Shown here: in pieces, positions 1 to 58,647 of the stretch | Numbering within the stretch: the first letter of the stretch is position 1 | Layout of the letters: each line of letters starts with the position of its first letter | Assembly (NCBI GenBank): GCA_947576095.1 | Contig: CANPPW010000003.1 | Span: 1-63,008 of the forward strand | Source: an uncultured Mycoplasmatota bacterium | GTDB taxonomy: Bacteria; Bacillota_I; Bacilli_A; RF39; UBA660 | DNA length: 63,008 nucleotides | Reading direction: 5' to 3' | The notes under the pieces: generated by a model | Database searches by the model: none | What the model saw: only the letters and a program-made list of their open reading frames with translations | What the model was told of the DNA's origin: nothing | Program-made: the position numbers and the translations under genes

Positions 1-456
1 TTTTATTCCTTCGCTTTTTTTACTTCTTTCTCTTCCTTCTTACTATGTTTCACGTGTAACATCTTTTTATTCCTTCGCTTTTTTTACTTCTTTCTCTTCC
101 TTCTTACTATGTTTCACGTGTAACATCTTTTTATTCCTTCGCTTTTTTTACTTCTTTCTCTTCCTTCTTACTATGTTTCACGTGTAACATCTTTTTATTC
201 CTTCGCTTTTTTTACTTCTTTCTCTTCCTTCTTACTATGTTTCACGTGTAACATCTTTTTATTCCTTCGCTTTTTTTACTTCTTTCTCTTCCTTCTTACT
301 ATGTTTCACGTGTAACATCTTTTTATTCCTTCGCTTTTTTTACTTCTTTCTCTTCCTTCTTACTATGTTTCACGTGTAACATCTTTTTATTCCTTCGCTT
401 TTTTTACTTCTTTCTCTTCCTTCTTACTATGTTTCACGTGTAACATCTTTTTATTC
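1..456. repeat. Perfect 64-bp direct tandem repeat: 7 copies (the first lacks 1 nt at the window edge) plus a 9-bp partial copy
   Basis: Unit tttttattccttcgctttttttacttctttctcttccttcttactatgtttcacgtgtaacatc recurs with period 64 (unit ends at 63,127,191,255,319,383,447). I can see no mismatch. The array abuts the 3' end of gyrA, and the window begins inside it, so true copy number is unknown. Confidence 0.97.
46..445. promoter_or_regulatory. parS: Array of seven identical parS (ParB-binding centromere) sites, one per 64-bp unit
   Basis: tgtttcacgtgtaaca occurs at 46-61, 110-125, 174-189, 238-253, 302-317, 366-381 and 430-445. Its reverse complement TGTTACACGTGAAACA matches all specified positions of the consensus TGTTNCACGTGAAACA. 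Confidence 0.8.
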
Positions 457-473
457 AAAAAAAAAAGAAGAAA

Positions 474-2903
474 CTAATTTTCCTCTTCATTAAATTCTTT
501 TTTTACAATGGCAACAGTGCTTACACGTTGCTCATCTTTTAAATTTATTAATTTTACGCCTTGTGCAACTCTACCCGTTGATGATATTTGATCAATTAAT
601 AATCTAATAATAATACCATTATCTGTTATAATCATTAAATCTTCATCACCATGTACAGCTTTAAAAGACACAATATTGCCGTTCTTTTCAGTAATATTAA
701 GTGCTTTTACACCTTTACTTCCTCTATGAGTCATTCGATATTCTTCTATTTTAGTTCTTTTACCATAACCTTTTTCCGTTACAACTAAAATTTCTTGTCC
801 AGAGGTTGCAATTTCCATTCCAACACAAATTCCATGATCTACATCAATTCCTTTAACACCTGCAGCTGTACGCCCCATTACTCTAATTTCATCTTCATTA
901 AAGTGAATCATACGTCCATTTGAGGTTGCAATTAATATTTTATTATTTCCCAAAGTTTTCTTAACTGATAATAACTCATCATTATCTTTTAATGTAATAG
1001 CTAATTTACCACTAGATCTAATATTATTAAATTCACTAATATCAGTACGTTTTACTAATCCATTTTGCGTACAAAATACAATATATTGAGATGTGTCATC
1101 ATTTTCTATTTTCAACATAGCACGCACTGTTTCTTCTTTTTCTAATGGTAATAAATTAACAATAGGTAATCCTTTAGATTGTCTATTATAAAGAGGAACT
1201 TCGTATCCTTTTATTCTATAGACTTTACCTTTGTTTGTAAAAAATAATAAATAATCATGTGTAGTCATTGAAATTAAATTTTCAACAAAATCTTCTTCAT
1301 GAGTAGTCATCCCTTTTATACCAACGCCACCTCTATTTTGTGTTTTATACGTTTCACTTAAGATGCGTTTAATATAGCCTTTATTTGTTAACGTAATTAC
1401 AATGTCTTCCACTGGGATTAAAGCTTCATCTTCTATATAATCTATAGCAGACATATCTATCTGAGTTTTTCTCTCATCACCATATTTATTTTTAATTTCT
1501 ATTAATTCCTCTTTTATTATATCTAAAATTCTATTTTCGTTTGCTAATATATCCCTTAAATCTGCAATTAAATCTCTTAATTGTTTCAATTGTTCTTCTA
1601 TCTTTTGTCTTTCTAAGCCTGTTAATCTACGAAGTTTCATTTCTAAAATAGCCTTGGCTTGAACTTCTGTTAAGGAAAATCTATTTACCAATTCATGAAT
1701 TGCGTTTTCATCATTAGATGATGCCTTTAATAACTTAATAATTTCATCAATATGATCTAGTGCAATTTTTAATCCCTCTAATATATGGGCCTGTGCTTCA
1801 GCTTTATCTAAATCAAATTTTGTTCTTCTATAAATAACTGTTCTTTGATGTTCGATATATTTTTCTAAAATTTCCTTTAAAGATAATGTCCTTGGTTTCT
1901 CATCTACTAAAGCTAAATTATTAATTCCATAAGTTGTCTGAATAGATGTATGTTTATATAAATTATTTAAAATAACATTCGAATTAGCATCTCTTCTAAG
2001 TTCTATTACAATTCGAATTCCATCTCTATTACTCTCATCTCGAATATCAGTAATCCCATCAATAACCTTATCACGCACTAAATCAGCTATTTTAGTAATT
2101 AATACTGATTTATTTACCATATATGGAATTTCTGTAATAATAATTTGATGTTTTCCATTTTTCATTTCTTCGATACTTGCTTTCGAACGAATTGTAATAA
2201 TTCCCTTACCCGTTTCATAAGCTTTTCGAATCCCACTATTTCCCAATATTGAAGCACCTGTTGGAAAATCTGGTCCCTTTATATATTCCATCAAATCTAA
2301 TACATTTAAATCAGGATTATCAATCAAAGCAATCGTTCCATCAATTACTTCAGCCAGATTATGTGGTGGCATATTGGTTGCCATACCTACCGCTATACCA
2401 GTAGTACCATTTACTAAAATATTAGGAAATCTAGAAGGAAGAACTTTAGGTTCTCTTTCTGTACCATCATAATTTGAAGTAAAATCAATTGTATTTTTAT
2501 TGATATCACGAACCAATTCCATACTCATTTTAGACATTCTTGCCTCTGTATAACGCATAGCTGCGGCTCCATCACCATCAATTGATCCAAAATTTCCATG
2601 TCCATCCACTAAAGTGTATCGATAAGAGAATGTTTGAGCCATACGTACAAGTGCTTCATAGATAGAAGAATCTCCATGTGGATGATATTTACCCATTACA
2701 TCTCCTACAATACGTGCACATTTTTTATGTTGTACAGACGATGTAGCACCCATATCATTCATTCCATATACAATTCTTCTTTGTACAGGTTTCAAGCCAT
2801 CTCTAACATCAGGAAGAGCACGTGCTACTATAACACTCATAGCATAGTCTAAAAAAGATTTTTGTATTGATTCGGTAAAAGGTAATTCTTGTAATTTATC
2901 CAT
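474..2903 (-). CDS. gyrA: DNA gyrase subunit A
   Basis: 809 aa. N-terminal [11 protein letters not shown] and [10 protein letters not shown] active-site region, C-terminal repeated beta-pinwheel-like segments, immediately downstream of gyrB. Confidence 0.97.
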
Positions 2904-6076: not shown

Positions 6077-6526
6077 TTATAAAAATTTTCGATGTCTTAA
6101 AATAGATTCTAGTCTAGTAGCTCTTAAAACTTGATTTTCTAAAGATCCATATGAAATATTAAGTTCTAAAGTTTCCCCATTTTTAAATGATACTAAAGAA
6201 TTTCTGTCATTTTTTAAATAGTTATTCACATGTTTTAAAGAAATCCATGTACAATTATCAAATCGCGGAGAACTAGTTGGAAAAAAAATTAAATTTTTTG
6301 TTTCTTCTACTATAATGGGTGCCTTATAACTAATTCCCATTAAAGCTTTTGTTCCCTCTTTTCTACCAATAAAAGAACTTCCAAAATATTTACAACTATG
6401 ATTGATAATTTCAGTTGTAGTCTTATTTACCTCAAACTCTCCATCCTCTTCTATAATCCTAGAATGATTATTTTGTAAAGGAATAATAGCAATTGTACTA
6501 GTATTAATTTCATAATTTTGTAACAT
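6077..6526 (-). CDS. comK: ComK-family competence transcription factor
   Basis: 149 aa, collinear by eye with B. subtilis ComK: ATIAVLP/STIAIIP, SC(R/K)(F/Y)FGSS, GRK.GT, PP/API(M/I)V, IF(L/F)FPT.S, W(I)S, FSNGKTMELPISY/FKNGETLELNISY, ENQV.R(T/A). Confidence 0.8.
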   Translation of the reverse strand: MLQNYEINTSTIAIIPLQNNHSRIIEEDGEFEVNKTTTEIINHSCKYFGSSFIGRKEGTKALMGISYKAPIIVEETKNLIFFPTSSPRFDNCTWISLKHVNNYLKNDRNSLVSFKNGETLELNISYGSLENQVLRATRLESILRHRKFL

Positions 6527-7837: not shown

Positions 7838-7947
7838 TGTGGAAAATGTGGATAATTTTTAGATTTCCTTTTATTTTTAAGGAAAAAAAGAGTTTGAATA
7901 ATGTCGAAAACTGTTTTTTTATCCACTGTGTATTTCTTTTATCCACA
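7838..7947. promoter_or_regulatory. DnaA-box cluster between dnaA and dnaN (downstream half of a bipartite oriC)
   Basis: 9-mers TGTGGAAAA 7838-7846, TGTGGATAA 7847-7855 (perfect TTATCCACA on the other strand), TTATCCACT 7919-7927 and TTATCCACA 7939-7947, all in an AT-rich spacer. Confidence 0.8.
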
Positions 7948-9297
7948 TTATTTAATTTGTTCTATAATTTTTTCAATTTGAATTTCAAGATTTTTATCTT
8001 TTTCTATTTCTTTTTTTATTTTATCAACTGAGTGCATTACAGTGGTATGATCTTTTCCACCAAAAGCAATCCCAATTTTAGGCAAGGTTTCTTCTAATTT
8101 TACTCTACATATATACATTGCGATTTGTCTTGGGACAGCAATTTTAGCTACTCTTCTCTTACTTTTTAAATCCTCCACTGTAATATTATAATTACTGGCA
8201 ATTAATTGTTGTACTTGATCAATTTTATTTTTTGCAGTGACGGTTTTTACAAAATAATCTCTTAATGCTTCTATCGCAAGGTCTATAGTGATTTCTGAAC
8301 TATTCATAATGGTTGCATAAGCCATAATTCTTGTGATAGACCCTTCCAGTTTTCTAATATCACTTATACAATTACTAGCTATATATTCTTTTACTTCTTG
8401 TGGAAAATTATTTGCCATTGGATTTCCTTCAATTTTTTTATCAATAATATCAATACGTAGTTTGAAATCAGGTGGAAGAATATCGGTTGTAATCCCCCAA
8501 TTAAATCTGGTTTGTAAACGTTGCTCTAATTTATTTAAATCATCGGGTGAACGGTCTGATGAAATAATAATTTGCTTATTATTACCATATAATTCATTGA
8601 ATGTATTAAAAAATTCTTGTTGGGCACTATTGGCGATTTGGAGATACTGTATATCATCAATCATTAATACATCAATGTCTCTATATTTTTTTTTAAATTG
8701 TTGCACATCATCTCTATTATCTGTAATTTCACTTTTTCGATATAATTCAATGAAGTCGTTAACGAATTGTTCACTTGTTACATATAAAACCCTTTTTTTA
8801 CTATTTTTAACAATATAGTTTCCAATCGCATGCATTAAATGTGTTTTCCCTAATCCACTATTTCCATAAATAAATAATGGATTATACATCATTCCTGGTT
8901 TTTCTGCAACTGCTAAAGCTGTTGTTCTTGCAAATTTATTACTCTGCCCTACTATAAAATTTTCAAATTGGTATTGGGATTTTAAATTTGTTTCAAGTTG
9001 GATGGATGGAATCCCAATTGTATCTGTATTAATTTCAATATTTTTTTCTACTTCTTCTTCAGTTAAATATTCAAATGAAAAATTAGAACCAGTAATATCT
9101 GTAAAAATACTTTCAATTAGATCACTATAATTTTCTTTTAGAAATTTTTTATGTACATGCATAGGAACTACCACTTTAGCTGTTGTTTCATTTAATTCAA
9201 TGAGTTTGGTATCCATAAACCATGTTTCATAAATCATAGAATTGGTATTTTCTTTAATTTCATTTAGAAATTTTCCCCATATACTATTGATGTCCAT
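7948..9297 (-). CDS. dnaA: Chromosomal replication initiator DnaA
   Basis: 449 aa. AAA+ Walker A GNSGLGKTHL, Walker B LMIDDIQ, C-terminal DNA-binding domain (GGKDHTTVMHS). Confidence 0.97.
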   Translation of the reverse strand: MDINSIWGKFLNEIKENTNSMIYETWFMDTKLIELNETTAKVVVPMHVHKKFLKENYSDLIESIFTDITGSNFSFEYLTEEEVEKNIEINTDTIGIPSIQLETNLKSQYQFENFIVGQSNKFARTTALAVAEKPGMMYNPLFIYGNSGLGKTHLMHAIGNYIVKNSKKRVLYVTSEQFVNDFIELYRKSEITDNRDDVQQFKKKYRDIDVLMIDDIQYLQIANSAQQEFFNTFNELYGNNKQIIISSDRSPDDLNKLEQRLQTRFNWGITTDILPPDFKLRIDIIDKKIEGNPMANNFPQEVKEYIASNCISDIRKLEGSITRIMAYATIMNSSEITIDLAIEALRDYFVKTVTAKNKIDQVQQLIASNYNITVEDLKSKRRVAKIAVPRQIAMYICRVKLEETLPKIGIAFGGKDHTTVMHSVDKIKKEIEKDKNLEIQIEKIIEQIK

Positions 9298-9352: not shown

Positions 9353-9681
9353 TGTGGAAAACACAAGAAAAAACAAGGAAAAAAAGATATGAAATATCAA
9401 TCCACAAACTTATCCACTTGAAAAAGCTATAAAAACATTAATAAAAATATAGTTTTGCACAAAAATGTGGAAAACTATATTCACATAAAAAAAAGAGGGT
9501 GACAAAATATCTAACAAAAATGTGGAAAACATATAAACATTAAGTAAAATCCTATAAAGTTTTTCACATTTCTAAATATAATATCCACATTTTTTATGTG
9601 AATAAAAAATTTTCAATTTTTTTTCCTGTGGAAATTTTGTCGAAAAAAATCGAATAATAAAAAAATTATTTTTTTTCCACA
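9353..9681. promoter_or_regulatory. DnaA-box cluster upstream of dnaA (oriC / dnaA promoter region)
   Basis: TTWTCCACA-like 9-mers at 9353-9361, 9398-9406, 9410-9418, 9466-9474, 9521-9529, 9581-9589, 9627-9635 and 9673-9681, plus a weaker one at 9560-9568. The flanks are extremely AT-rich. Gene orientation flips here. Confidence 0.8.
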
Positions 9682-15778: not shown

Positions 15779-16472
15779 TGAATTTATTAAAGAATTAGAA
15801 AATTTAAATATATATATGAATTCATCTCAAGCATCTCAATTAGAAAAATATTATACATTATTAATAGAGTGGAACCAAAAAATGAATTTAACAGGAATTA
15901 CAAAAAAAGAGGATGTTTATTTAAAACACTTTTATGATAGTGCAACTCTATCAAAAATAATTAATTTAAAAGATTATAAAAGTTTATGTGATATTGGCAC
16001 AGGAGCAGGATTTCCTGGAATGATATTAAAGATTTTATTTCCTCATTTACAAGTAACATTAATAGATTCACTGCATAAAAGAATTCATTTTTTAAAGGAA
16101 GTTATTCATGAACTTTCTTTAGATGGTATCACCGTCATTGAAGAAAGAGCAGAAGAGTATGCTAAAATCCATAGGGAAAAATTTGATATTGTTACTTCAC
16201 GTGCTGTCGCACCACTTTCTATTTTAATGGAATACTCTGTTCCTCTTCTAAAAGTAGATGGTTATTTTATTCCTATGAAAGGGAAAATAGAAGATGAAAT
16301 GAAAAATATAGGCAAAGCAACTATTCAATTAGGGATTGAATTAGAAGAAAAACAGATTTTTACATTACCTATTGAGAACAGTCAAAGATCATTAATCAAA
16401 TTTAAAAAGAAAAAAATAACAAATATAAAATATCCAAGAAAGTATAATGAAATAAAAAAACATCCTTTATAA
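15768..16472 (+). CDS. rsmG: 16S rRNA (guanine527-N7)-methyltransferase
   Basis: 234 aa. SAM motif DIGTGAGFPG. Follows mnmG. Confidence 0.93.
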   Translation: MGNSEFIKELENLNIYMNSSQASQLEKYYTLLIEWNQKMNLTGITKKEDVYLKHFYDSATLSKIINLKDYKSLCDIGTGAGFPGMILKILFPHLQVTLIDSLHKRIHFLKEVIHELSLDGITVIEERAEEYAKIHREKFDIVTSRAVAPLSILMEYSVPLLKVDGYFIPMKGKIEDEMKNIGKATIQLGIELEEKQIFTLPIENSQRSLIKFKKKKITNIKYPRKYNEIKKHPL

Positions 16473-16931
16473 TAAAGATGTCCATAATTCTTTTAAATTT
16501 TTATATTGTGTAAGATTATGAGAGAATATATAGTACATATTTAGAACATAAACTTGATAAAAATCTTGAGGTATTTCTAAATCTTTATCTTTATATGACC
16601 AAGAATAAGTTACTTCTTTCATTTCATTTTCATATAGTATAAAGTTATATTGTATAATTTCATCAATTGTAGAAAGATAGTTTTTTACTATCTTTTTTCT
16701 TTTAATCCCGTATTCTAAAATAGAAAAGTTATTGCGACTATCCCAATTTGGTGTAGTTATAATGATTTGTAAAAAAGTTATCTTGCTTCCAAATATTAGA
16801 TAATGAATGGTATCATTTTTTAAGTCAATATAGAAAATAAAAGGATCATTTATGTTTCTTATTTCTTTTAGTAATTTACTGTGAAAGATTTTATCTTTTA
16901 ATTTTTTTTCATTTTTTAGAAGAAAATTCAT
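16467..16931 (-). CDS. Hypothetical protein (no recognisable domain)
   Basis: 154-aa ORF, convergent with rsmG. One of very few minus-strand genes right of oriC. Confidence 0.45.
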   Translation of the reverse strand: MNFLLKNEKKLKDKIFHSKLLKEIRNINDPFIFYIDLKNDTIHYLIFGSKITFLQIIITTPNWDSRNNFSILEYGIKRKKIVKNYLSTIDEIIQYNFILYENEMKEVTYSWSYKDKDLEIPQDFYQVYVLNMYYIFSHNLTQYKNLKELWTSLL

Positions 16932-17102
16932 ACACTCACCTCATCATTAACATACACGATGTATACTAAAATTACAAATGGTAAATATTGTAAATATAAG
17001 TATATATTTTTGCAAATATGATAAATATAAAAATTTTATTGAATTATTTCCCAAATTATAGTAATATAGATGTATAAGAGAATAAAGTAGGAGGATTGTG
17101 TG

Positions 17103-19076
17103 ATGAAAGGCGAAGCAAATGTAGTCATGCTCCATATAAATGATATTTTGCCTAATCGATTTCAACCCCGCATTAAATTTAATGAAAATAAAATAGGGGA
17201 ATTGGCAGAATCTATAAAAAAGTATGGAGTGATTCAACCTATCATTGTTAGAAGAGTTGGCGATAAATATGAAATCATTGCTGGTGAAAGACGCTATAAA
17301 GCAAGTGTTTTAGCAAATCTTAAAGAAATTCCAGCGATTATTAATAACTTAGATGATAAAGATAGTTCTGAAGTAGCACTAATTGAAAATGTTCAAAGAG
17401 AGAATTTAACTCCAATTGAAGAAGCTATTTCCTATAAAAAAATATTAGACATGGGGTATCATACCCAGGAGAATTTAGCAACTAAATTAGGAGTCAGTCA
17501 GAGTGCTGTTGCAAATAAACTTAGACTTTTGAATTTAACAGAAGAAGTGCAAGAAGCATTGTTGGAAAATAAAATTTCAGAAAGACATGCTAGATCTTTA
17601 TTAAAATTGAAAAATAACAATGATCAAGTACAAATGCTTTATCGTGTAATACAAGAGAGATTAACCGTAAGAAAATTAGATGAGGAAATAGAAAAATTAT
17701 TACAAAAAGAATCTCAAAATTCTACTTTAGAAGAAAAAGAAGATTTAAATGAAGAAATAGAAATTCTGAATATTTTAAACTCTTATAAAGAAGAAAAGAA
17801 AAATAAAGAAAAAAAAGAGGAGGAAAAAAATATGAACCCAAATGATCCAATGAATCAATTTGATATCCCTGAAGTAAATATGACAAATAATAATATTCAG
17901 GGAGTTTCAAATAATCAGGTGCAGGCACCACTTTCAGACGCTAATGTTAATAATTTTATAAATAATAATCTAGGAGGAACTATAGTTGATAATTCAGTTC
18001 CAGATACAACAATCAATCCAACAACAAATGCGAGTACACCTGGTTTTATGGATATTGATAGAATTCAAAGAGAGGCTATGGATATAACAGGTACAACTCC
18101 AATTCATCCTACACCAGTGCAAGCAGATCCAACTTTGATAAATATGGATTCGCAACCATCATCCCAAGTAGGACAGATGGAACAACAAGGAAAATTTTTT
18201 GATGTTTTACCAAGTATGCAAAATCATCAGGAAAATATAGGAATTCAGAATGAAAATCCAACATTTATGAATTCAAATTCCTCTGTTTCAACCCCTTCAA
18301 TAGGTGAGAATTCTAATTTTACTAATATTTTAGAAAATCCAACAATAGATCCTATTCCAATGCAAAATGTATCTAGTATAAATGAAAATGGGAATCTGCC
18401 TAGTTCTTTTGATCAACCAGTATCAACATCAATTGAAACAGAAAATCGTTCTGAAGGTGAATCTACTCCTTTATCTGGAATCAATATGCAACCTAATAAT
18501 ATTCCATTAGAAGGTCCTATTGTTGTAGATCCATTTCAGACAAGTCCAATGAATAATAATTCAGTAGAAATACCAGTAAATATACCATCTAATGATACAA
18601 CTCATAATGAGGTAGTTTCTCCATTACCAACTTTTGATTTTAATATGCAGAGTCCATCTTCTCAAATGGTAATGCCTGAGACGAATATTCAAGTGGACAT
18701 GCCTATTGCAGAACAAGTATTACCTTCTGAAAGTGATACTATGACTCATCAGGCAATGAATATGGGAATCCCAGAAGTTCCTATTATAGAGCCAATTCCA
18801 GTAAATCCTCTTTCTCAGGAACCTATTCGAACTATAGATGGAGTAGCCCCATTAGAGGCAGAAGTACCAATCCCAGTTCAAGGGTCGCCAATTATGAATG
18901 AATCCATAAATTCATTTAATATGAATTCTCAATCCACAAACACAGTTAATATTCAAATGGCTATAAATGTAATAAATAGAGCAAATGAAGAATTAAAAAA
19001 TCTTGGATTTACTACTACAGTGGAAGATTTAGATTTAGGAAATTTACACCAAATTACAATTAGAATTAATAAATAG
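17103..19076 (+). CDS. parB: ParB/Spo0J/Noc-family protein with a long low-complexity insertion and a short C-terminal segment
   Basis: AGGAGGA RBS 7 nt before the ATG at 17103. The N-terminal ~200 aa carry ParB motifs (IQPIIVR, IIAGERRYKA, ALIENVQRENL, HTH LATKLGVSQSAVANKL). The next ~420 aa are N/Q/P/S/T-rich, followed by a ~40-aa non-repetitive C-terminal segment. Confidence 0.88.
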   Translation: MKGEANVVMLHINDILPNRFQPRIKFNENKIGELAESIKKYGVIQPIIVRRVGDKYEIIAGERRYKASVLANLKEIPAIINNLDDKDSSEVALIENVQRENLTPIEEAISYKKILDMGYHTQENLATKLGVSQSAVANKLRLLNLTEEVQEALLENKISERHARSLLKLKNNNDQVQMLYRVIQERLTVRKLDEEIEKLLQKESQNSTLEEKEDLNEEIEILNILNSYKEEKKNKEKKEEEKNMNPNDPMNQFDIPEVNMTNNNIQGVSNNQVQAPLSDANVNNFINNNLGGTIVDNSVPDTTINPTTNASTPGFMDIDRIQREAMDITGTTPIHPTPVQADPTLINMDSQPSSQVGQMEQQGKFFDVLPSMQNHQENIGIQNENPTFMNSNSSVSTPSIGENSNFTNILENPTIDPIPMQNVSSINENGNLPSSFDQPVSTSIETENRSEGESTPLSGINMQPNNIPLEGPIVVDPFQTSPMNNNSVEIPVNIPSNDTTHNEVVSPLPTFDFNMQSPSSQMVMPETNIQVDMPIAEQVLPSESDTMTHQAMNMGIPEVPIIEPIPVNPLSQEPIRTIDGVAPLEAEVPIPVQGSPIMNESINSFNMNSQSTNTVNIQMAINVINRANEELKNLGFTTTVEDLDLGNLHQITIRINK

Positions 19077-19354: not shown

Positions 19355-19820
19355 ATGGAATATGATAAATTTTTAGCGAAATATAATAAGATTGATTTGA
19401 TAGAAAATTGTACCATTGATATTGACTTACTCAAAGTTATTCATAAATATTTATTTGGGGATAGTCCTAGTGAACAGTCAATTGTGGGAGTTTTCAGATA
19501 TACAAAAGGACAAGTGCTTATGATCGAATTAGGAAAATTTTAGAAAAGTTATCAATACTTATAAATAGAGATGTATCTATTGATAATATATTGCACTAGT
19601 ATGTAAGGGTATAGCTGTTATTTGGATGTATCAACCATTTTATGATGGAAATACTAGATGTTGCTTATTATTACAATGATTATTGTTGAAACAAAGAAAG
19701 TTAGAAATTCATTTTGATAGAAATACTTCTTTTATAGGAACTGTATATAGCGAAAATGATGAAATTCCATTTTTTATAGATAAAGTTAAAAAACATATTT
19801 TGAATATTGATAGTAGATAA
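19355..19820 (+). pseudogene. Decayed Fic/DOC-family gene
   Basis: A 62-aa N-terminal ORF is followed by out-of-frame pieces reading ...IAVIWMYQPFYDGNTRCCLLLQ*LLLKQRKLEIHF.... This is a degenerate HPFxDGNGR Fic motif with several stops and frame changes. Confidence 0.55.
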
Positions 19821-19854: not shown

Positions 19855-20970
19855 ATGAAAAATAAAAACTACCAATTTGTGTTTTTATATGCAATTGGGT
19901 CTATTTTAATTGTTGCTGGACATTGTAATAATGGTAGTATTAATTTAGCATTTGATTTTTTTGATATTTATACATTTCATCTAGCATTATTTATTTTCGC
20001 ATCTGGGTATTTTTACAAAGAAAAGTATGAATCCAATCCTTTAAAGTATATATGGAAAAAATTTAAAAAACTTATTATTCCTATGTACATGGTGAATTTG
20101 TTTTGTGGAATTTTTATTTTAATCTTGAAAAGATATGGTTTCAGCATTGGTGCAGAGTTTAGTTTATATAATATACTTATTGCACCATTAAAAGATGGAC
20201 ATCAATTTGTATATAATATGTGTTTCTGGTTTGTTGTACCCTTATTTATGATAGAAAGTTTTAATATATTCATTAGAAAATTAAATAAAAAAATTGGATT
20301 TAATTATGAATATTTTAATACAATAGTATACTTTATGTTTGGAATAGGAGTATTATGTTTTGCAAAGTATGGTTCTAATATACAAAATCATTTATTTATT
20401 TTAAGATTTTTCTATTTTTTACCTTATTATCAATTAGGAATTTTATATCATAAAAAAATAGAAAAGCATGATACCCTTTGTAATGAAAAATATTTTCTAT
20501 TATTATTTGGCATTCAGTTTATTTTAATAACAATGAATAAAGGATTGCCTTCTTATTCTCCTTCATGGATGCAATTTAATGGACAGATTTTTCTACCCTA
20601 TTTAGAGGCGATCCTTGGTATTGCCTTTTGGCTTAGAATTTCTAAAATAATGGAAGAATATACTAAAAAAAGTAAATTAATAAATTGTGTAGCAGATCAT
20701 GCTTATTCTATCATGGCATATCAGTTTTTTGGATTCTTCTTTGTTAAATCTATATTTGCCCTATTTAGTAAGTATACACCTTGTTTCTCTAATTTTGATT
20801 TTGTAGCTTTTAAAAATAATGTTTGGTACTATTATTTACCATTTAATATGAATCAGTGGTTAATTGTTTATTTAATATTTGGAATTGTAACCCCTATTTT
20901 AATAAATAATATTATAGTATATTACAAGGAAAAAATAACAAATATTTTACCTATATTATATAGAAAATAA
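19855..20970 (+). CDS. Acyltransferase-3 family integral membrane protein
   Basis: 371 aa, about 10 predicted TM helices. N-terminal ...ILIVAGHC... with the conserved His typical of the family. Confidence 0.55.
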   Translation: MKNKNYQFVFLYAIGSILIVAGHCNNGSINLAFDFFDIYTFHLALFIFASGYFYKEKYESNPLKYIWKKFKKLIIPMYMVNLFCGIFILILKRYGFSIGAEFSLYNILIAPLKDGHQFVYNMCFWFVVPLFMIESFNIFIRKLNKKIGFNYEYFNTIVYFMFGIGVLCFAKYGSNIQNHLFILRFFYFLPYYQLGILYHKKIEKHDTLCNEKYFLLLFGIQFILITMNKGLPSYSPSWMQFNGQIFLPYLEAILGIAFWLRISKIMEEYTKKSKLINCVADHAYSIMAYQFFGFFFVKSIFALFSKYTPCFSNFDFVAFKNNVWYYYLPFNMNQWLIVYLIFGIVTPILINNIIVYYKEKITNILPILYRK

Positions 20971-22486: not shown

Positions 22487-22754
22487 TATTTGTAAGAAAA
22501 AAGCACATTTACGTTTCCATTAACATAAGATAATATATAAATATGGTTTAGAAAATAAGCCTTTTTTTTCGTGTATAAAAATCTCAAAATGAAACTTTTC
22601 ATCAGAAACAAAAAAATGAATGTAAACATGTATGATTTATTTACATTTTTACTTGAAAATGTTTCCAAAAAGAGTTAATATCATTATTGTAAAAAATGCT
22701 TGCATATTTAAATTATTTGTAGTACAATAGCCACCAAAAAAAGGAGTGAAGTTT

Positions 22755-25700
22755 ATGAAAAATCCAAAAAACATATTTAAATTTGATATAAAAGATAAAT
22801 TAATTTTAGTAGGGATAGTATCATTACTCTCAATATGTATGATAGGGTTAAGTAGTCAACTTATAAAACAAGATATAGAATTATCAAAATCCTCTTATGA
22901 TTATTTAGCATATAACAAAGGGGATGTTCGATATCTATCAGACTTGGATTTTATTACTGATAATAACTGGTCTTATAACGGTTGGTCAGGACATGAAATT
23001 CAAAAGGATAAAAACCAAGATGAAGGGACATTGAGTTTAATCATTGATGGTGAAAGACGATACTTTACTAAAGGTATAAGTATTCATGGGAAAGGTCAAG
23101 CGACTTTCGATATTTCAGAACTATCAACCTCCTTTCCACGTTTTATTGCGAAAATAGGAGTAGATGCAGCACGAGGAAACAATGGAAATATTTGGATTCA
23201 GATTCTTGTATCAAATAATGGTAGCAAATGGACATCGCTATTAAAAACAGGAAATATGAATGGTAACACAAATGCTGTAGATGTTGATGTAAATGTTGAA
23301 GGTTATAAATACTTGAGAATATATGTTGATCCGATTGGAAGTAACGCGGCCGATCATGGTACAATAGCTAACGCAAGGTTAGTAAAACAGGATTTTGATA
23401 AGAATGCACCTGCATTTGATAAAGTGAAACCAGATCAATATTATGATGAAATTTTACGTATTAAAGATAAAGATTACAACTATGAAAATAACTATAGACA
23501 AATACTTGAGAGAGAATTTGTAAGAAAAATTGGCTATTGGAATATTCAAGAAATTGCAGATCATACTGAAGGTATGCGTGAGACATTAGAGTGGATTTTA
23601 AGTGAAGATGAAAGACTTGAACAAATAATCGAAGTGGGTGAAATTTCTAACAGTTTAACTTTTATGAATATCATAAATGATCTATATATTAGAAATAAAG
23701 AAGCACTGAAAACAGAAAAAGGTTATGTATACCAAAAAATGATGATTGGACTTGCTGCAGCATATTCTACAGATAGAGTCATTTCACCGCTTTCATTCGG
23801 TTTTTTAGGAACATCTTATGATTATGTAGAACGATTTACTTTAATGAAAAAATTATTTGATGAGAATAAACTAAAAAGAGTTAAAACAAATGCTTTGGCT
23901 GGTGAATTTGTTAAGAATGATTGGTTTAAAGATTATCATGTTCAATTAATGCGTATGGTTATGCAAGATGGTACCAGTAATGTAGATCTTATGTGGCTTA
24001 ATGGATATACAAATGAAAAACAAAGTTTAAGTTTTTATATGATTCCTTATATTTCGCCAAATTATAATCAAGCAAGATTCTATGATGAAACCAATAGGGA
24101 ATTATATGATGGAAAGTATTTTCTGAGTAAATATAATGTGCCTTATGGTATCAGAGTTCAAAGATATTGGATGGTTATTGAAGGTGGAGGAATCTGTTGG
24201 AACGCATCCCGTTTTGGGCAAAGTATGAATCGTGTTAATGGTATTCCAGCAACAGGTGCATATCAACCTGGACATGAATTATATATCCATTATTATCAAG
24301 ATAATAATGGAAATGGTTATTGGACACCCCGATATGGTAACTGGGGAAATGCTGGTAGTACTTGGGGTGGTAGTAACCGCTATCGCTATATATTTGATTG
24401 GGGCAATAAATATTTTACTGATCAAAAAATTAGTGGTTCTAAAGGTGCAACAAGTACAGGCTATTTATATCTAGGTCAGGAAAATTTAAATAATTATGAC
24501 AAATATAAAAAGTCATTATATTATAATTTAATTGCTAATTCTTACACAGATGATAATAAAAAGCTTGAAACATATTTTAAATCTTTAGAGATTAATAATT
24601 TAAACTTAGATACTTATGATTATATAATCTCGCTTTATAAGAAAATGAGTGTTAAAAATGAAGGTGGAATAATAACATCAAATGATTGGTACACTCTAGC
24701 AAACAAGATAATTGAATCATATACTTATTATCCTGTAGCAATGTTTGATTTACTAAAAGTTATAAGACCATATTTAGAAGGTGGTCATAGATTAGATATA
24801 GATAGACTTGAAAAAGAGGCTTTAACCAAGGCTACCACGGCTTCTGCGAGTGTTACAAATTCAGTTGATGGTACCAGAACACACGCTAGACAACTTTTAG
24901 GAAAGACTCAACCTGATCCAGTGTCATTTTCATTTGATGGGACTAATGCTGGTAAAATAGTCAAAAATCCTAACTATTCCCTTGCTTGGGGATATAGTTT
25001 AGATGGTGGTAAAACTTTTACTGATTTTAAAATAGATGATTCAATTACTTTGAGTCAAGAGGAATTAGAAAGTATTACTGCTGAAAACGACATTATTGTT
25101 AATTTCATGGGATTAACTTATACATTTAGAATTGATATTACTAAGGGTACAGTAGATAATAATTTGTTTGCAAATGATTTAGAAAATAGAGTTGTAGGTA
25201 TAACTTTAAATTATGAATGGAGAAACAATGAAAACGATACTTGGACTTCATATAAAGATGCCTCTCCAGATAATACAGGAAATAAAACATTATATGTAAG
25301 AAAAGTAGCGTCAGGAACGCAACTTACAAGTGATACCGCAACTTATACTTTTACAGAAGATAATCAACCAAATACGAGAAAATATGTACCAGTATCACAT
25401 TTGAGCATTGAAGCAGTATCAACAGAAGCTACAAGCAATGGAGGAGCTGCTATATATGCTATTGACGGAAACTATAATACCAGATGGCATAGTGCTTGGA
25501 ATGGATCTGATACACAAAGATTTATAACAATAAAATTAGATAAAAAAAGATTTGTTTCTGCAGTTGAGTTTGTACCTGCAGGAGGAGGAAATGGGAAAAT
25601 ATATGACGGAACCATTTGGGGAAGCGCAGATGGTGAGAACTGGGAAATACTATCAAAAAAAACCGGATTAACTTACACCAATAAAGCTGATACAATAGCA

Positions 25701-27173
25701 CAAGCAATTCAAAATACAAAAAGTTTTGAAATAGAAGACCCAAAAGAAGTACAATATATAAAAATAGTTGCAGATAGAACAAATGGCAATTGGTTTACAG
25801 CTCGTAATTTCAATATTTTCCAAGATCTAACAAAAAATCCACGCCCAACTGCTGGTATAGGATATAGTGAAACAGATCCTACAACTAACAATGTAGTAGC
25901 AAGATTAGTAAATCCAAGTACCAATATTACAATTACAAACAATGGTGGAAGTGATACCTATACCTTTACTGAAAACGGAGAATTTACATTTGAATTTGTT
26001 GATGAGAAAGGTACTAAAGGTACAAGTACTGCTAAAGTAGATTGGATTGATAGAAAATCCCCAACTGCCACTATTGAATATAGTACAAATTCCTCTACCA
26101 ATCAAACAGTTGTCGCAACCTTAAAACCAAGTGAAGATGTTATCGTTACAAATAATGGTGAGTACATGGTGGATGATGATGGAAATATTCTTGATAAAGA
26201 TGGAAATATTATGAATGGATACACAGTGGATGATGATGGAAATGTTAAAGATACGAGTGGTAGTATAATTGCTAACATCAATACATTCACTTATGAATTC
26301 TTATCAAATGGAGAATTTACATTTGAGTTTATGGATAGAGCTGGTAACAAGGGAAGTGCTACAGCTAAAGTTACTTGGATTGATCATGATGTTCCGAATG
26401 CTACACTAACATATAATATACCAACTTTTACCAACCAAAATGTTACAGTGACTGTAGAATTTGATGAGGATGTAATTGTTATGAATAATGATGGAAAATC
26501 CTCATATACTTTCACTGATAATGGTGAATTCACATTCTATTTTAAAGATTTAGCTGGAAATACAAATAGCATAACTGCTAAAGTAAATTGGATCGATAAA
26601 GTAGCTCCAACAGCTGAGTTAAAATATGAAAGAATTGGTAATAAAGTTATCGTTTATGTTGTCAATCCTAGTAAGACTATCACTTTCCAAAATGGAAATG
26701 GTATTTATGAATTTACTGCTAATGGTCATTATGATATTTTATTCTATGATAAATTAGGGAATATGGGTAAATTAACAGCTATTATTAATGGTCTAAAAGA
26801 TAATACACAAAATAATCATACAGGAAGTACTGGAGGAAACAGTAATCTTGGAAATAGTACAATTACTAGTAAGGAAAATTACACATCTTTTAATAATATG
26901 AATGATAAAGAATCTACCCAAATTACCGAACCAGATAATCAAGAGTCTGAACAGAGAGACGAAAATAACAAGATAGATGATGAAACTCAAAGTGACATGA
27001 ATATAACAGATAAACAAAATAAAAAACTTGATGATAAAGATATTAAGAAAACTGAAAAAAGTATTCAAACAGAAAAAGCGAAGATTAATTACAATATTCT
27101 TATAGTAATTTTAACAGCTTTAGGAATTATCATTATGAGTATTGTCATTGTTAAAAAAAGAGAAAAAATTTAA
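22755..27173 (+). CDS. Giant membrane-anchored surface protein (NPCBM-like + transglutaminase-like core + F5/8 type C + Ig-like repeats)
   Basis: AAAGGAG RBS 9 nt before the ATG at 22755 (the track starts at GTG 22746). N-terminal TM or signal anchor. NPCBM-like module (YLSDL...GWSGHEIQKD...ISIHGKG...). Cys/His core GGICWNASRFG...GIPATGAYQPGHELYIHY. Discoidin-like AIDGNYNTRWHSAW. Four repeats. Acidic stalk and C-terminal TM. Confidence 0.8.
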   Translation: MKNPKNIFKFDIKDKLILVGIVSLLSICMIGLSSQLIKQDIELSKSSYDYLAYNKGDVRYLSDLDFITDNNWSYNGWSGHEIQKDKNQDEGTLSLIIDGERRYFTKGISIHGKGQATFDISELSTSFPRFIAKIGVDAARGNNGNIWIQILVSNNGSKWTSLLKTGNMNGNTNAVDVDVNVEGYKYLRIYVDPIGSNAADHGTIANARLVKQDFDKNAPAFDKVKPDQYYDEILRIKDKDYNYENNYRQILEREFVRKIGYWNIQEIADHTEGMRETLEWILSEDERLEQIIEVGEISNSLTFMNIINDLYIRNKEALKTEKGYVYQKMMIGLAAAYSTDRVISPLSFGFLGTSYDYVERFTLMKKLFDENKLKRVKTNALAGEFVKNDWFKDYHVQLMRMVMQDGTSNVDLMWLNGYTNEKQSLSFYMIPYISPNYNQARFYDETNRELYDGKYFLSKYNVPYGIRVQRYWMVIEGGGICWNASRFGQSMNRVNGIPATGAYQPGHELYIHYYQDNNGNGYWTPRYGNWGNAGSTWGGSNRYRYIFDWGNKYFTDQKISGSKGATSTGYLYLGQENLNNYDKYKKSLYYNLIANSYTDDNKKLETYFKSLEINNLNLDTYDYIISLYKKMSVKNEGGIITSNDWYTLANKIIESYTYYPVAMFDLLKVIRPYLEGGHRLDIDRLEKEALTKATTASASVTNSVDGTRTHARQLLGKTQPDPVSFSFDGTNAGKIVKNPNYSLAWGYSLDGGKTFTDFKIDDSITLSQEELESITAENDIIVNFMGLTYTFRIDITKGTVDNNLFANDLENRVVGITLNYEWRNNENDTWTSYKDASPDNTGNKTLYVRKVASGTQLTSDTATYTFTEDNQPNTRKYVPVSHLSIEAVSTEATSNGGAAIYAIDGNYNTRWHSAWNGSDTQRFITIKLDKKRFVSAVEFVPAGGGNGKIYDGTIWGSADGENWEILSKKTGLTYTNKADTIAQAIQNTKSFEIEDPKEVQYIKIVADRTNGNWFTARNFNIFQDLTKNPRPTAGIGYSETDPTTNNVVARLVNPSTNITITNNGGSDTYTFTENGEFTFEFVDEKGTKGTSTAKVDWIDRKSPTATIEYSTNSSTNQTVVATLKPSEDVIVTNNGEYMVDDDGNILDKDGNIMNGYTVDDDGNVKDTSGSIIANINTFTYEFLSNGEFTFEFMDRAGNKGSATAKVTWIDHDVPNATLTYNIPTFTNQNVTVTVEFDEDVIVMNNDGKSSYTFTDNGEFTFYFKDLAGNTNSITAKVNWIDKVAPTAELKYERIGNKVIVYVVNPSKTITFQNGNGIYEFTANGHYDILFYDKLGNMGKLTAIINGLKDNTQNNHTGSTGGNSNLGNSTITSKENYTSFNNMNDKESTQITEPDNQESEQRDENNKIDDETQSDMNITDKQNKKLDDKDIKKTEKSIQTEKAKINYNILIVILTALGIIIMSIVIVKKREKI
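25861..26790 (+). repeat. Four tandem coding repeats (Ig-like modules) inside the surface protein
   Basis: Recurrent Y(T/E)FT.NGEFTF.F.D.AGN....TAKV.WID...P blocks around 25958, 26283, 26503 and 26701. Confidence 0.75.
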
Positions 27174-28064: not shown

Positions 28065-28407
28065 TGACTATAAAAAAACTTTAGATAATATTAGGAATGT
28101 ATTAACAGATAATATCAAATCTATGAATTATATAGATACTAGTAGAATGTCAAAAAAGGAAAAGTATAATTTAATAATAGAATTACAAAACCAGATTCAT
28201 CATTTACAAATCGAACTGCTAATAAGAAAGTCCGTTGATCAAAGATATATAAATGGATTAATTCAAAGTAGATATGATGAAATTATGAAATTGCTTCATA
28301 ATCCAATATTAACCCTGCCAAGTGGAAAACAAATAGAATTTAGTTCTTTATCACCAGAACAATTAGAATATTTAGAGAGCCTATCTGTAAAATCAAAGAA
28401 AATTTAA
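28054..28407 (+). CDS. Hypothetical coiled-coil protein
   Basis: 117-aa ORF overlapping the preceding gene by 11 nt. No recognisable domain. Confidence 0.45.
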   Translation: MNNDDYKKTLDNIRNVLTDNIKSMNYIDTSRMSKKEKYNLIIELQNQIHHLQIELLIRKSVDQRYINGLIQSRYDEIMKLLHNPILTLPSGKQIEFSSLSPEQLEYLESLSVKSKKI

Positions 28408-28823
28408 AAAGAATATCAAGTGAAAAGATAATGAAATGTAGGTATTATTGTGCCTATGAAAAATCAAAGGGTAAAGAATTTTATAGAAGATATTATCTAA
28501 AACTTATCAAGGGTATCTTAAAAAATGTTATTCGAAATCGACTTGTATCATTGTGTTATTCAATAAAAAAGAATCTACTATTTAATGGATAGTGATGATT
28601 AGATAGCAAAACGGTTTGAACATAGTGAAAGAGGCCATCTTTTAGGTGTTGGTTGGTTTGCCCTCGTATAGGGAATTTATATCACATATTTTATGCATAG
28701 TTATGATTAGGTATTATATCAAATTTCTTACGAAGAATATTTGCTATTTTTCTCTGTTCTTTAATGCATTTTTTTCTTTTTATAATATTTGTGTTATAAT
28801 TAATAAAACTTAAGAGGGATAAT

Positions 28824-39559: not shown

Positions 39560-39681
39560 AAGTTTGGTAACATTTTAAAAATGGATTAACAAAAAATAAA
39601 AATTATTGCTAAATAATTAGTTTTGTTTTATAACAAACATTGTTTTTGAGGACTAATGTATCAAAATTAAGGAGGAAAATT

Positions 39682-41406
39682 ATGGAAGATGGATTTATTG
39701 CCTATGTTGGGACAGAAATAGAAGAAGAAGAAATAAAGAATTTATTAGAAACACTTTGTGCAGATAAAATGGAATGGGAAAGAGATGCAACCTATCAATC
39801 TCGTATAATAAAAGGTGCGGGTGCTATTTTTGGTCAAGTCATTGATTGCGATACTTTTCGACAAAAAGTAACTTTACCTGCTTTATATAATAATTTGCTA
39901 TATGTAGCAAGTTATGATTATTCTGCATTTATGAAGATTGAAGATGACTTTGTTGGTGACTATGATTTCGATTATGAATACCCTCATATATTAATTCCAG
40001 CTCTATTAAAGGATTATGATACAAAGGCCTTTCATTTGTTAGAATCAGTAGGTGTAACATGTGCATTTGCTAGTTATGATAGAAAAACAAGATCCTTTAC
40101 TGCTGCTAAAATTGGTGATTATAAATTTTTTTATGGATATACAAAACAAAATCATGAGATAATCTTTTCTGATAATGCCAAAATAATACGAGAATTATGT
40201 GGATCTGCAAAAGACTTCCCAGATGATTGTTTTTATAGATATGGTACATTTTATACATTTAAAAAACCACAAGAAGAAATAATATACGTAAATCCAGAGG
40301 ATTTTGATCAAAAACCATTTGAAAATACCACATTAATAGCAAATATTGAAAAAACATTTAATGAATCTTTAGCAGATTTAGAGCTACATAAAAAAGTTGA
40401 TGAATTTATAGATCAAAACTTGAGTATTGAAGTAAAAAAAAGATTATTAAAAATAATAAAACAAGAAATTCAAAAATATAATATTCAAGGAAAAGTTCAA
40501 GAACAAATGACTCAGGTTTCACAACAACTTGGAGAAAAGATCACTGAAGCAGTTGCAAAATCATTAGATAAAATATCTATTCCTACAATTCATATTATTA
40601 AACTTGGAGAAACAGAATTAGGTAGAACAAATGCAGAATTGTTTCATGAAAAATTTGAGGAAGTTTTATCTTTAGTTCAATTAGATGAGCCAGTTATGTT
40701 AATTGGACCTACAGGATCTGGTAAAAACCAAGCTATTAGCCAAATAGCAAGAGCATTAGGTTTACACATGTATTATACAAATAATGCATCAAACGAATTT
40801 AAATTAACTGGATTTATTGATGCAGGTGGTACTTACAGAGATACTGAGTTTTATAAAGCATTTAAAAATGGTGGTATATTCTTTTTAGACGAAATTGATT
40901 GCTCTGATCCCTCAGCATTAATAGTAATTAATTCAGCACTTGCAAATGGGTATATGGCTTTTCCACATGAAACAATAGATAGACATCCTGATTTTAGAAT
41001 AGTTGCAGCTGCGAATACTTGGGGAAAAGGATCAGATTTACAATATGTTGGAAGAACTGCTTTAGATGATGCGACACTTGATAGATTTGATAATGTTTTC
41101 TTTGACTATGATAGAAATCTAGAAAAAGGATTATATCCTAGTGAACAAGTATTAAGATTTATGTGGTCATTTAGAGATGCCATTGAAACTGCTAAAATGC
41201 TACATAATGTATCAACTCGTGGTATAGGTAAAGTTTATAAAAAAGAAATAAATGGAATTCCTACAGAAACAATATTAAGAGTGAATGTAATTAGAAATTT
41301 AGGGCAAGATGATTTAAATATTATTTTAGGAAATATGCAAAATATAGATTCAAATAATAAATACTTTGAAACAGCAAAAAGCTTAAAATTAGTTAATAGT
41401 AGGTAA
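39682..41406 (+). CDS. CobS/MoxR-type (AAA_5) ATPase fused to an unusual ~330-aa N-terminal region
   Basis: AAGGAGG RBS before the ATG at 39682. C-terminal ~250 aa carry Walker A GPTGSGKN, Walker B IFFLDEID, then RIVAAANTWGKGSDLQYVGRTALDDATLDRF, which is CobS-like. N-terminal ~200 aa resemble an AsnB-type Ntn amidotransferase fold without the Cys nucleophile. A coiled-coil linker lies between. Confidence 0.75.
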   Translation: MEDGFIAYVGTEIEEEEIKNLLETLCADKMEWERDATYQSRIIKGAGAIFGQVIDCDTFRQKVTLPALYNNLLYVASYDYSAFMKIEDDFVGDYDFDYEYPHILIPALLKDYDTKAFHLLESVGVTCAFASYDRKTRSFTAAKIGDYKFFYGYTKQNHEIIFSDNAKIIRELCGSAKDFPDDCFYRYGTFYTFKKPQEEIIYVNPEDFDQKPFENTTLIANIEKTFNESLADLELHKKVDEFIDQNLSIEVKKRLLKIIKQEIQKYNIQGKVQEQMTQVSQQLGEKITEAVAKSLDKISIPTIHIIKLGETELGRTNAELFHEKFEEVLSLVQLDEPVMLIGPTGSGKNQAISQIARALGLHMYYTNNASNEFKLTGFIDAGGTYRDTEFYKAFKNGGIFFLDEIDCSDPSALIVINSALANGYMAFPHETIDRHPDFRIVAAANTWGKGSDLQYVGRTALDDATLDRFDNVFFDYDRNLEKGLYPSEQVLRFMWSFRDAIETAKMLHNVSTRGIGKVYKKEINGIPTETILRVNVIRNLGQDDLNIILGNMQNIDSNNKYFETAKSLKLVNSR

Positions 41407-41411
41407 TAATT

Positions 41412-54093: not shown

Positions 54094-54140
54094 GTTTGCT
54101 TTATTTACTTTTGTTTGGTAAAATGGAAAGGAGAATAGGA

Positions 54141-54782
54141 ATGAAAAAATATGGTAAATTACTTATACTTGTACTTTTTTTAGTACCTATTACTGTATTA
54201 GCAGAAGATTGTTCTCCAAAAGATAGAGTGAATCTATCTAAAATAGCCCAAAATGTTGCAGTAGCTAAGGTTTTTGATGAAAATACAGCTACATTTAAAC
54301 TTGTTTTTAGTAATGTAACTTCAGAAATATACTTATATGATGTAACAGGAAGAAATTATCATTATTCATCAAATGCTGATATTTCACTTAAAGGATACTA
54401 TCCAGGTAGTAAATATAAGTTTATATTTTATTCTAATGCTTATGGGTGTGAAGAGGAGGTTATATATACTAAATATATAACATTTCCGAATTATAATGCT
54501 CTTTATAAAGATGAAAGTTGTCGTGGATTAGAAGATTATAAAATATGTAAAAAATGGGCAAATGTAGATATATCATATGATGATTTTAAAAAAGAAACTC
54601 AAAAATTAAAAGAAAAAGAGGAAGAAAAAATAGAGCCTGTACAAAATATAAAGGGATATTTTGATTATATCATTGATTTTGTAATGAAATATGATTATAT
54701 TCTTTTACCAATTTTTATAGCAATATTTATCGGTCTTGAATATGTCATGTGGTATAAAAATAAAAAGGAACAATTTTTTTAG
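54141..54782 (+). CDS. Secreted, C-terminally anchored Cys-containing protein
   Basis: AAAGGAGA RBS before the ATG at 54141. Signal peptide MKKYGKLLILVLFLVPITVLA. C-terminal TM ILLPIFIAIFIGLEYVMW. Confidence 0.6.
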   Translation: MKKYGKLLILVLFLVPITVLAEDCSPKDRVNLSKIAQNVAVAKVFDENTATFKLVFSNVTSEIYLYDVTGRNYHYSSNADISLKGYYPGSKYKFIFYSNAYGCEEEVIYTKYITFPNYNALYKDESCRGLEDYKICKKWANVDISYDDFKKETQKLKEKEEEKIEPVQNIKGYFDYIIDFVMKYDYILLPIFIAIFIGLEYVMWYKNKKEQFF

Positions 54783-54791
54783 GAGGTCATT

Positions 54792-57755: not shown

Positions 57756-57776
57756 AAGAAAGAAAGGGAGAAATTT

Positions 57777-58634: not shown

Positions 58635-58647
58635 GGAAACAATCATT

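Follow-up and report, generated by a model that had tools for sequence, protein, structure and literature searches.

The 63,008-nucleotide stretch analyzed here (hereafter, the window), contig CANPPW010000003.1 of assembly GCA_947576095.1 from an uncultured Mycoplasmatota bacterium of the RF39 lineage, has a GC content of 28% and begins inside a tandem array of parS centromere sites, which ends 17 bp from the stop codon of gyrA. The features at this end of the window are the following:

1–456, unstranded: tandem array, 7.1 perfect copies of a 64-bp unit, truncated by the window start (Tandem Repeats Finder, TRF)
46–61, unstranded: parS site 1, TGTTTCACGTGTAACA, 0 mismatches to TGTTNCACGTGAAACA on the minus strand
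110–125, unstranded: parS site 2 (consensus scan)
174–189, unstranded: parS site 3 (consensus scan)
238–253, unstranded: parS site 4 (consensus scan)
302–317, unstranded: parS site 5 (consensus scan)
366–381, unstranded: parS site 6 (consensus scan)
430–445, unstranded: parS site 7, nearest gyrA (consensus scan)
474–2903, minus strand: gyrA (809 amino acids; Pfam DNA_topoisoIV, 5e-171, and DNA_gyraseA_C), conserved throughout the clade as the left anchor of the parS cluster

For positions 1 to 456, TRF reported a period of 64 bp with 7.1 copies, 100% matches, 0% indels, and a score of 912, which confirms a preliminary description of this DNA as holding at least seven identical sites on a perfect 64-bp repeat beside gyrA. 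Each unit consists of a 16-bp parS site and a 48-bp spacer, and the units are arranged head-to-tail with one palindrome each. The sequence TGTTTCACGTGTAACA starts at 46, 110, 174, 238, 302, 366, and 430, and its reverse complement, TGTTACACGTGAAACA, shows 0 mismatches to the parS consensus TGTTNCACGTGAAACA at all 7 sites, as had been stated. A parS-type half-site is distinguished by G at "position 1" and A at "position 6" (PMC7383237), and both half-sites of all 7 sites are of this type and not of the type of the Noc-binding site (NBS). When up to 2 mismatches were allowed, 15 parS matches were found in the window, compared to a mean of 0.09 in dinucleotide-preserving shuffles. Since these correspond to the 7 array sites on both strands and one 2-mismatch match at 40959, the window contains no further parS site at ≤1 mismatch, which bears out the earlier impression that the remaining 62.5 kb is devoid of other parS-like sites.

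A reading of the array as coding sequence was rejected because the length of the unit (64) is not divisible by 3 and stop codons occur within it; the array is thus non-coding. The spacer is 90% pyrimidine on the plus strand, and no palindrome, promoter, or terminator signal was found in it, nor was any Rfam family or tRNA found in the array. With no such signal or match, no alternative accounts for the unit. Furthermore, an exact search with a 33-nt core of the unit was negative for both JGI metagenome contigs and viral contigs, and the unit therefore appears to be lineage-specific. The 100% identity of the units supports the view, already taken in the preliminary description, that they result from recent amplification or homogenization.

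The identification of the same species (99.9% DNA identity) in other samples allowed a comparison of independent assemblies. In a SPAdes contig obtained from sample ERZ14651043 (L093), the gyrA junction and the 64-bp unit are identical to those of the window, and the contig terminates within the array after 4 parS copies (3.8 units), while a further scaffold (L084, ERZ28621988, 99.9% identical) has a calculated start near window position 210, based on coordinate arithmetic. The recurrence of an identical junction and unit in an independent sample and assembly means that the array is real and not a one-off assembly artifact, a concern that had been raised because the sequence ends here. It should be noted that the copy numbers of 7.1 (window) and 3.8 (L093) mark assembly stop points and are not measured counts; as had been suspected, the array is cut by the window start and probably continues past this edge. 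In exact-protein look-ups with GyrA, GyrB, RecF, and DnaN, all contigs returned stop before or inside the array. An explanation of the array as a repeat made or inflated by the assembler, or as a functionless, selfish satellite with a parS-like palindrome arising by chance, would draw on the fact that the window starts inside the array and that both same-species contigs end there as well, on the different copy numbers of the two assemblies (7.1 versus 3.8), and on the perfect identity of the units, which is what a collapsed repeat would show. However, unit and junction are identical across independent samples and assemblers, and a contig break at this point requires a real repeat that is longer than the k-mer or read length.

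The comparison with related species extended these findings. A GyrA-based scan with one genome per species yielded 80 loci, the closest 59 of which (GyrA identity about 59–88%) were analyzed; these are mostly metagenome-assembled genomes (MAGs) from gut and rumen, assigned to uncultured Bacilli, "Tenericutes," or Erysipelotrichaceae; a few named Bacilli are found among the most distant loci. Counting sites with 0–1 mismatch, parS sites after gyrA are conserved beyond the neutral expectation: the first 2.5 kb after gyrA contain 197 sites in 106 kb, compared to 3 sites in 610 kb of the upstream region and 0 sites in 253 kb beyond the first 2.5 kb. No such cluster after gyrA was found in the loci of the Bacillus relatives Kurthia, Psychrobacillus, Rossellomorea, and Jeotgalicoccus, in those of Thomasclavelia and Clostridium, or in most Lactobacillaceae loci. 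Among the 6 relatives scanned with contigs that cross the region, 5 hold the cluster in the non-coding gap between gyrA and the signal recognition particle (SRP) RNA gene scr; the exception (L027) has most of its parS sites past the SRP RNA gene, beyond which dnaX-ybaB-recR lie in the relatives.

Tandem arrays that carry parS were present in about 11 of 49 clade loci, with a unit identity of 79–100% and with periods of 26, 37, 44, 68, 70, 75, 93, 95, 118, and 136 bp that are mutually unrelated, and the array of the window is the most homogeneous case seen among them. Since the periods are unrelated between relatives, amplification recurs at the gyrA-scr locus. The remainder of the unit outside parS differs between species, and the spacing of parS sites in relatives ranges from 26 to >400 bp and is often irregular. 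The latter bears on the earlier proposal that a 64-bp spacing, being close to 6 helical turns, places all sites on roughly one face of the DNA: 64 bp correspond to 6.1 turns and thus to a drift of 34 degrees per unit, and with spacings this variable, phasing is not a conserved feature. Across approximately 50 species, stages from 2 dispersed sites up to perfect tandem arrays are found at one fixed position, which means that parS clusters here expand through local tandem duplication and decay afterwards. Given this conservation within the clade and the arrays of unrelated period, the gyrA-scr parS cluster dates back to the ancestor of the clade and is reshaped by repeated rounds of local tandem duplication and decay, so that the locus shows directly a process that generates parS copy-number variation.

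The conservation of parS clusters at this position in about 50 species, including arrays of diverged units that are fully spanned by contigs, also argues against an artifact, and a chance palindrome in a satellite would not be expected to match the parS consensus exactly while the remaining unit sequence varies between species; we therefore consider an artifact or a functionless satellite very improbable. The contig ends themselves have a practical side. In 19 of 49 clade contigs, the end lies <1.5 kb after gyrA, as is expected if repeats defeat short-read assembly, and the parS arrays are a systematic breakpoint in the assembly of these MAGs, right after gyrA. Several contigs end inside a perfect parS repeat, among them those of L012 and L013 (26-bp units) and of the window species.

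A dense, iterated centromere had been regarded in the preliminary description as a plasmid- or phage-like design. In sopC, the centromere of the F plasmid, a 43-bp unit is indeed directly repeated 12 times, and SopB binds a 16-bp inverted repeat in every unit (PMC3177203); the array shares with sopC the architecture of an iterated centromere with one palindromic site per near-identical tandem unit. In addition, triple parS arrays occur in 15 viral contigs, so that a sopC-like centromere derived from a plasmid or phage and integrated beside gyrA had to be considered. However, a blastn search with window positions 1–520 against 72,556 plasmid and 50,697 phage records gave no match, and the unit lacks an exact match in viral contigs. 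Furthermore, unlike sopC, the array carries the chromosomal parS consensus, has no adjacent sopAB/parAB or mobile-element genes, and lies at a conserved syntenic chromosomal location, flanked by gyrA and a conserved housekeeping gene order throughout the clade. A plasmid or phage origin of the array is thus largely refuted, and we regard it as scarcely credible. The viral-class contigs mentioned above (L219–L233, from IMG/VR) carry 3–8 closely spaced parS sites of the chromosomal consensus type, for example 5 sites at 38-bp spacing in L232 and 3 sites at 55-bp spacing in L225; within the stretch fetched, a ParB-family match was found in only 1 of these 15 contigs, which could be phage-plasmids or misclassified chromosomal fragments.

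Dense parS arrays are not confined to this clade. A pattern search of metagenomes for 3 parS sites with gaps of 20–50 bp identified at least 120 loci with a GC content of 25–67%. Among the matches listed, clusters mostly comprise 3–5 sites and reach up to 10–15, and many are regularly spaced; soj/parA lies near the cluster in 65 of 135 loci, typically about 100–200 bp away and usually together with parB. A GyrA match was obtained for 15 of these 135 loci, with gyrA located at most approximately 350 bp from the cluster in 11, and these 11 loci are all low in GC and without a par gene, like the clade of the window. Chromosomes carry from 1 to about 23 origin-proximal parS sites, and one is often sufficient (PMC7333895). 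The earlier statement that chromosomal parS sites are normally dispersed single copies is therefore overstated, considering at least 120 metagenome loci with tight triplets and chromosomes with up to 20–23 origin-proximal sites (PMC7333895). The dense clusters linked to soj/parA-parB comprise, among the matches listed, 3–15 consensus parS sites at a spacing of approximately 37–65 bp. The array of the window resembles the triplets found about 100 bp upstream of soj/parA-parB operons of uncultured bacteria in their regular spacing and frequent tandem arrangement. However, those triplets are located at the promoter of the par operon, where a combined role in autoregulation and as a centromere is plausible, while the clusters of the window clade follow gyrA and have no par operon.

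The position of the array relative to the replication origin was determined from the genes and DnaA boxes that follow gyrA. A block of minus-strand genes comprises gyrA, gyrB, recF, comK, dnaN, and dnaA (7948–9297), and two clusters of DnaA boxes flank dnaA:

7838–7947, unstranded: DnaA-box cluster in the dnaA-dnaN spacer, 4 boxes with 0–1 mismatch
9353–9681, unstranded: DnaA-box cluster upstream of dnaA, 7 boxes with 1 mismatch, near the GC-skew sign change

The GC skew changes sign at about 9.5–10 kb of the window, and the two clusters indicate the halves of a bipartite oriC of the Firmicutes type. Judged from these clusters and the skew flip, the array lies 7.4–9.2 kb from oriC, in agreement with the distance of 7–9 kb given previously.

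The window encodes a single protein of the ParB family:

17100–19076, plus strand: Noc-type ParB-family gene (658 amino acids) with ParB_N and HTH_ParB domains

The preliminary description had taken this gene, given there as 17103–19076, to encode the ParB that reads the array. Several observations argue for a different assignment. The gene is located directly after rsmG (gidB), which is the position of noc in Bacillus subtilis, and its product matches solved structures of Noc best (7NG0/7NFU, 201 bits; 7OL9, 178 bits), followed by those of Spo0J/ParB (168 and 157 bits). The DNA specificity of this family is set by 4 residues, R173/T179/A184/G201 in ParB and Q173/K179/K184/R201 in Noc (Jalal et al., PMC7383237). 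In deep mutational scanning, R173 was invariable among parS-specific variants, parS binders carried a small residue (G/S/T/C) at 201, and dual-specificity variants mostly had T/S at this position (PMC7383237). In our alignment, the residues at 173/179/184/201 are R/H/T/G in B. subtilis Spo0J (6SDK), Q/K/K/R in Noc, and Q/K/N/R in the window protein. With Q173 and R201, the latter lacks the combination typical of canonical ParB (R173 with G/S/T/C at 201), and it carries the one typical of NBS-binding Noc (Q173, K/R at 179 or 184, R201). Q173 and R201 are retained in all 120 best homologs (404–703 amino acids long), whose signatures are QKNR (68), QTNR (34), QKQR (11), and minor variants (6), with 1 homolog not readable at all 4 positions. 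The protein is therefore of the Noc type, contrary to its earlier assignment, and its specificity residues predict that it reads NBS and not parS.

Nevertheless, this protein is not a typical Noc. The NCBIfam Noc model TIGR04285 is its best match and scores below the cutoff, with 272.5 bits (279.9 bits after deletion of the linker) versus 315. Unlike B. subtilis Noc, it contains a disordered, N/P/S-rich linker of approximately 385 residues, after removal of which the protein aligns end to end with the Noc model, its C-terminal 45 residues aligning with the end of the model. A GERRYK box replaces GERRxR in the Noc-like family. At the N-terminus, only about 16 residues precede the PNRFQPR motif, and an in-frame upstream extension is impossible; residue 7 aligns with residue 29 of the Noc chain in 7OL9. 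Owing to this short N-terminus, the protein has no Noc membrane-targeting segment, and no N-terminal amphipathic membrane-targeting helix of the kind known from Noc was detected in it. The missing N-terminal segment is presumably the Noc membrane-targeting helix. The Noc-like family to which the protein belongs is large and uncharacterized, and its members have an N/P/S/Q-rich disordered linker of 200–450 residues that is followed by a conserved C-terminal domain of about 45 residues. The genes of this family invariably follow rsmG directly and have no soj/spo0J next to them.

Two intergenic indels, both short, distinguish the window from the same-species scaffold L084 downstream of the Noc-like gene (19684–19730 and approximately 28372–28409, as blastn breakpoints). 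The gene itself is flanked by a 154-amino-acid open reading frame (ORF) located antisense after rsmG (16467–16931, minus strand) and by a 371-amino-acid ORF downstream (19855–20970, plus strand), both of which are conserved without a Pfam or NCBIfam match and are present in the close relatives L082 and L084 and absent from L097 and L098.

With the B. subtilis Noc/NBS system, the gene shares the location after rsmG, the residues Q173/K179/R201, the end-to-end alignment to the Noc model after linker removal, and the occurrence of NBS 14-mers in many genomes of its clade. At ≤1 mismatch, no NBS (ATTTCCCGGGAAAT) was found in the 63-kb window, and relatives likewise have a low density of NBS on this side of oriC; no other over-represented palindrome that could represent a diverged Noc site was found in the window either, so that the 7 parS sites are its only ParB/Noc-style palindromes. 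However, perfect NBS 14-mers occur in many clade members and accumulate in the gyrA-scr gap, with 6.7 NBS per 10 kb in the gap, 0.02 upstream, and 0.85 beyond it, and with a median distance of 49 bp to the nearest parS. This concentration beside parS at the origin differs from the dispersed NBS of the B. subtilis Noc system. Among 49 loci, the gap contains parS and NBS in 26 and parS only in 20. In the most regular case, L053 (12560–13460), 7–8 units of approximately 118 bp each carry 1 parS and 1 perfect NBS, and similar tandem units with both sites were seen in L032 (12680–13050) and L040 (8360–8584). That the sites fall into two discrete classes speaks for two separate readers in the clade, and the Noc-type protein fits the NBS class. 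An attempt to pair Noc-side and gyrA-side loci of the same species through the dnaA-recF region gave a best match of only about 74% identity.

We favor, with reasonable though not strong confidence, an interpretation in which the array represents a true parS cluster of the chromosome, close to its origin, that was recently amplified and would act as the loading platform of a parS-specific ParB CTP clamp, its reader likely being a canonical ParB encoded elsewhere. As the Noc-type protein is not predicted to bind parS, this reader would most likely be encoded outside the 63-kb window. Three observations weigh against this interpretation. The slot that soj-spo0J occupies after noc in the gene order of B. 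subtilis is empty in every neighborhood examined, and no soj/spo0J was found after the Noc-like gene in the window or in any relative examined. Moreover, the window and 1.5 Mb of origin-proximal clade loci yielded neither a parS-type ParB (R173 with a small residue at 201) nor ParA; tblastn searches with Spo0J, Soj, and the N-domain of the Noc-like protein revealed no second ParB-family gene in either set, and a Pfam search of the remaining ORFs of the window agrees with this result. Finally, all sequences of this species that extend into the array, namely the window and two contigs, break off within it and thus span neither its far boundary nor its full number of units. Since no parS-type ParB or ParA lies near the origin and the soj-spo0J slot is empty, we infer the parS reader rather than observe it.

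According to the main rival interpretation, the Noc-type protein would be the only ParB-family protein of the lineage and would itself read the parS array, a Noc paralog without the helix having been repurposed after the loss of soj-spo0J. Neither the window nor any clade neighborhood seen has another ParB-family gene, and soj-spo0J are missing after this one; the protein is devoid of the N-terminal segment that bears the membrane helix of Noc; it is conserved with an intact GERR box; and the window offers it 7 parS sites as the only ParB/Noc-style palindromes, with no NBS at ≤1 mismatch in 63 kb, just as 20 of the 49 clade loci have parS and no NBS in the gap. However, the NBS-specifying residues Q173 and R201 are kept in 120 of 120 best homologs; R173 is invariable in parS-specific variants, and dual-specificity variants mostly carry T/S at 201 (PMC7383237). 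Furthermore, the perfect NBS 14-mers in many clade members show that cognate NBS exist for this family, and the absence of NBS from 63 kb is weakly informative, since relatives have few NBS on that side of oriC. We therefore judge such a takeover unlikely, though deserving of attention. A broader and in our view rather unlikely variant would treat the gyrA-scr spacer as a shared landing pad for two CTP-switch clamps, the parS reader and a Noc paralog without the helix and with an expanded linker, whose NBS are interleaved unit by unit with parS in some species; in parS-only species, soj-spo0J would have been lost and the Noc-type protein would have become the centromere binder despite Q173/R201. 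If the Noc-type protein were indeed the centromere binder, this would overturn the published four-residue specificity code and represent a functional reversion from Noc to ParB. Its failure to bind parS, on the other hand, would not refute the assignment of the array as a centromere.

The gyrA-scr spacer is thus the conserved home of parS clusters in a large group of gut Bacilli that are uncultured and low in GC, and the clusters at this locus turn over by repeated tandem duplication, through replication slippage or unequal recombination, and subsequent decay. In the species of the window, a recent amplification or homogenization produced several identical 64-bp units, at least about 4–7. In the interpretation favored here, each parS would nucleate ParB-CTP clamps that slide onto the flanking DNA, and a single concentrated partition complex 7–9 kb from oriC might support origin organization, segregation, and SMC loading from a narrow zone. 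As no ParA is encoded nearby, this system is possibly ParA-independent, as in Streptococcus pneumoniae or Staphylococcus aureus.

With origin-proximal chromosomal parS clusters bound by ParB/Spo0J, for example those of Caulobacter, Corynebacterium glutamicum, Pseudomonas aeruginosa, Streptomyces, and Listeria, the array shares the consensus palindrome, the multiple copies, the distance of less than approximately 10 kb to oriC, and presumably also the role in ParB-CTP nucleation, origin segregation, and SMC loading (PMC7333895). Unlike those clusters, it consists of strictly head-to-tail, identical repeats with sites 48 bp apart, and in this clade the cluster is located in the gyrA-scr spacer instead of in or near parAB, with no parA/parB nearby. 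The ParB-parS-SMC systems of S. pneumoniae and S. aureus, which lack ParA, likewise belong to Firmicutes and have origin-proximal parS sites (PMC7333895); by analogy, SMC loading and origin organization are likely the main output here. However, these species have a canonical ParB at the origin, whereas none is found within about 60 kb of oriC in the window, the sole family member being of the Noc type.

Neither the concept of a centromere cluster nor the tandem arrangement of parS sites is peculiar to this locus, as both are widespread. Three aspects are new: in a clade that has no parAB near the origin, the cluster keeps a conserved place between gyrA and scr; duplication and decay can be seen at work there; and the cluster is associated with a large, uncharacterized Noc-like family and with arrays in which NBS and parS are interleaved. 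Reviews treat the copy-number variation and clustering of parS as open questions (PMC7333895). Tight clustering has been proposed to limit collisions of SMC complexes, and the parS sites of Bacillus are scattered (bioRxiv 10.1101/2020.12.04.411900). Members of the class Bacilli can thus use one tight parS zone, unlike the scattered layout of Bacillus, which is relevant to models of how SMC is loaded and how collisions are avoided. Furthermore, the Noc-like family and the interleaved arrays make the question of what reads what at the origins of reduced genomes directly testable. A search of the literature on parS, ParB, or Noc in RF39, Mollicutes, or Erysipelotrichales found nothing relevant.

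Several other genes of the window are worth mentioning. A comK homolog (6077–6526, minus strand; Pfam ComK, 1e-47) is located between dnaN and recF, an arrangement that is also present in the relatives L085, L087, L097, and L098. Downstream of the Noc-like gene, a 1475-amino-acid protein with NPCBM and F5/8 type C (discoidin) domains (22746–27173, plus strand) is probably a large glycan-binding surface protein. An McrB-like AAA_5 ATPase (588 amino acids) followed by a DUF7192 protein (296 amino acids; 39640–42302 for both, plus strand) may represent a pair of restriction or defense genes. Finally, 3 big ORFs (526, 230, and 850 amino acids; 52513–57344), for which no Pfam match was found, precede a Tad/Flp-pilus-like cluster (57354–60075, plus strand) that encodes a DUF5411 protein, an RcpC/CpaB-like protein, and a T2SSE/CpaF-type ATPase.

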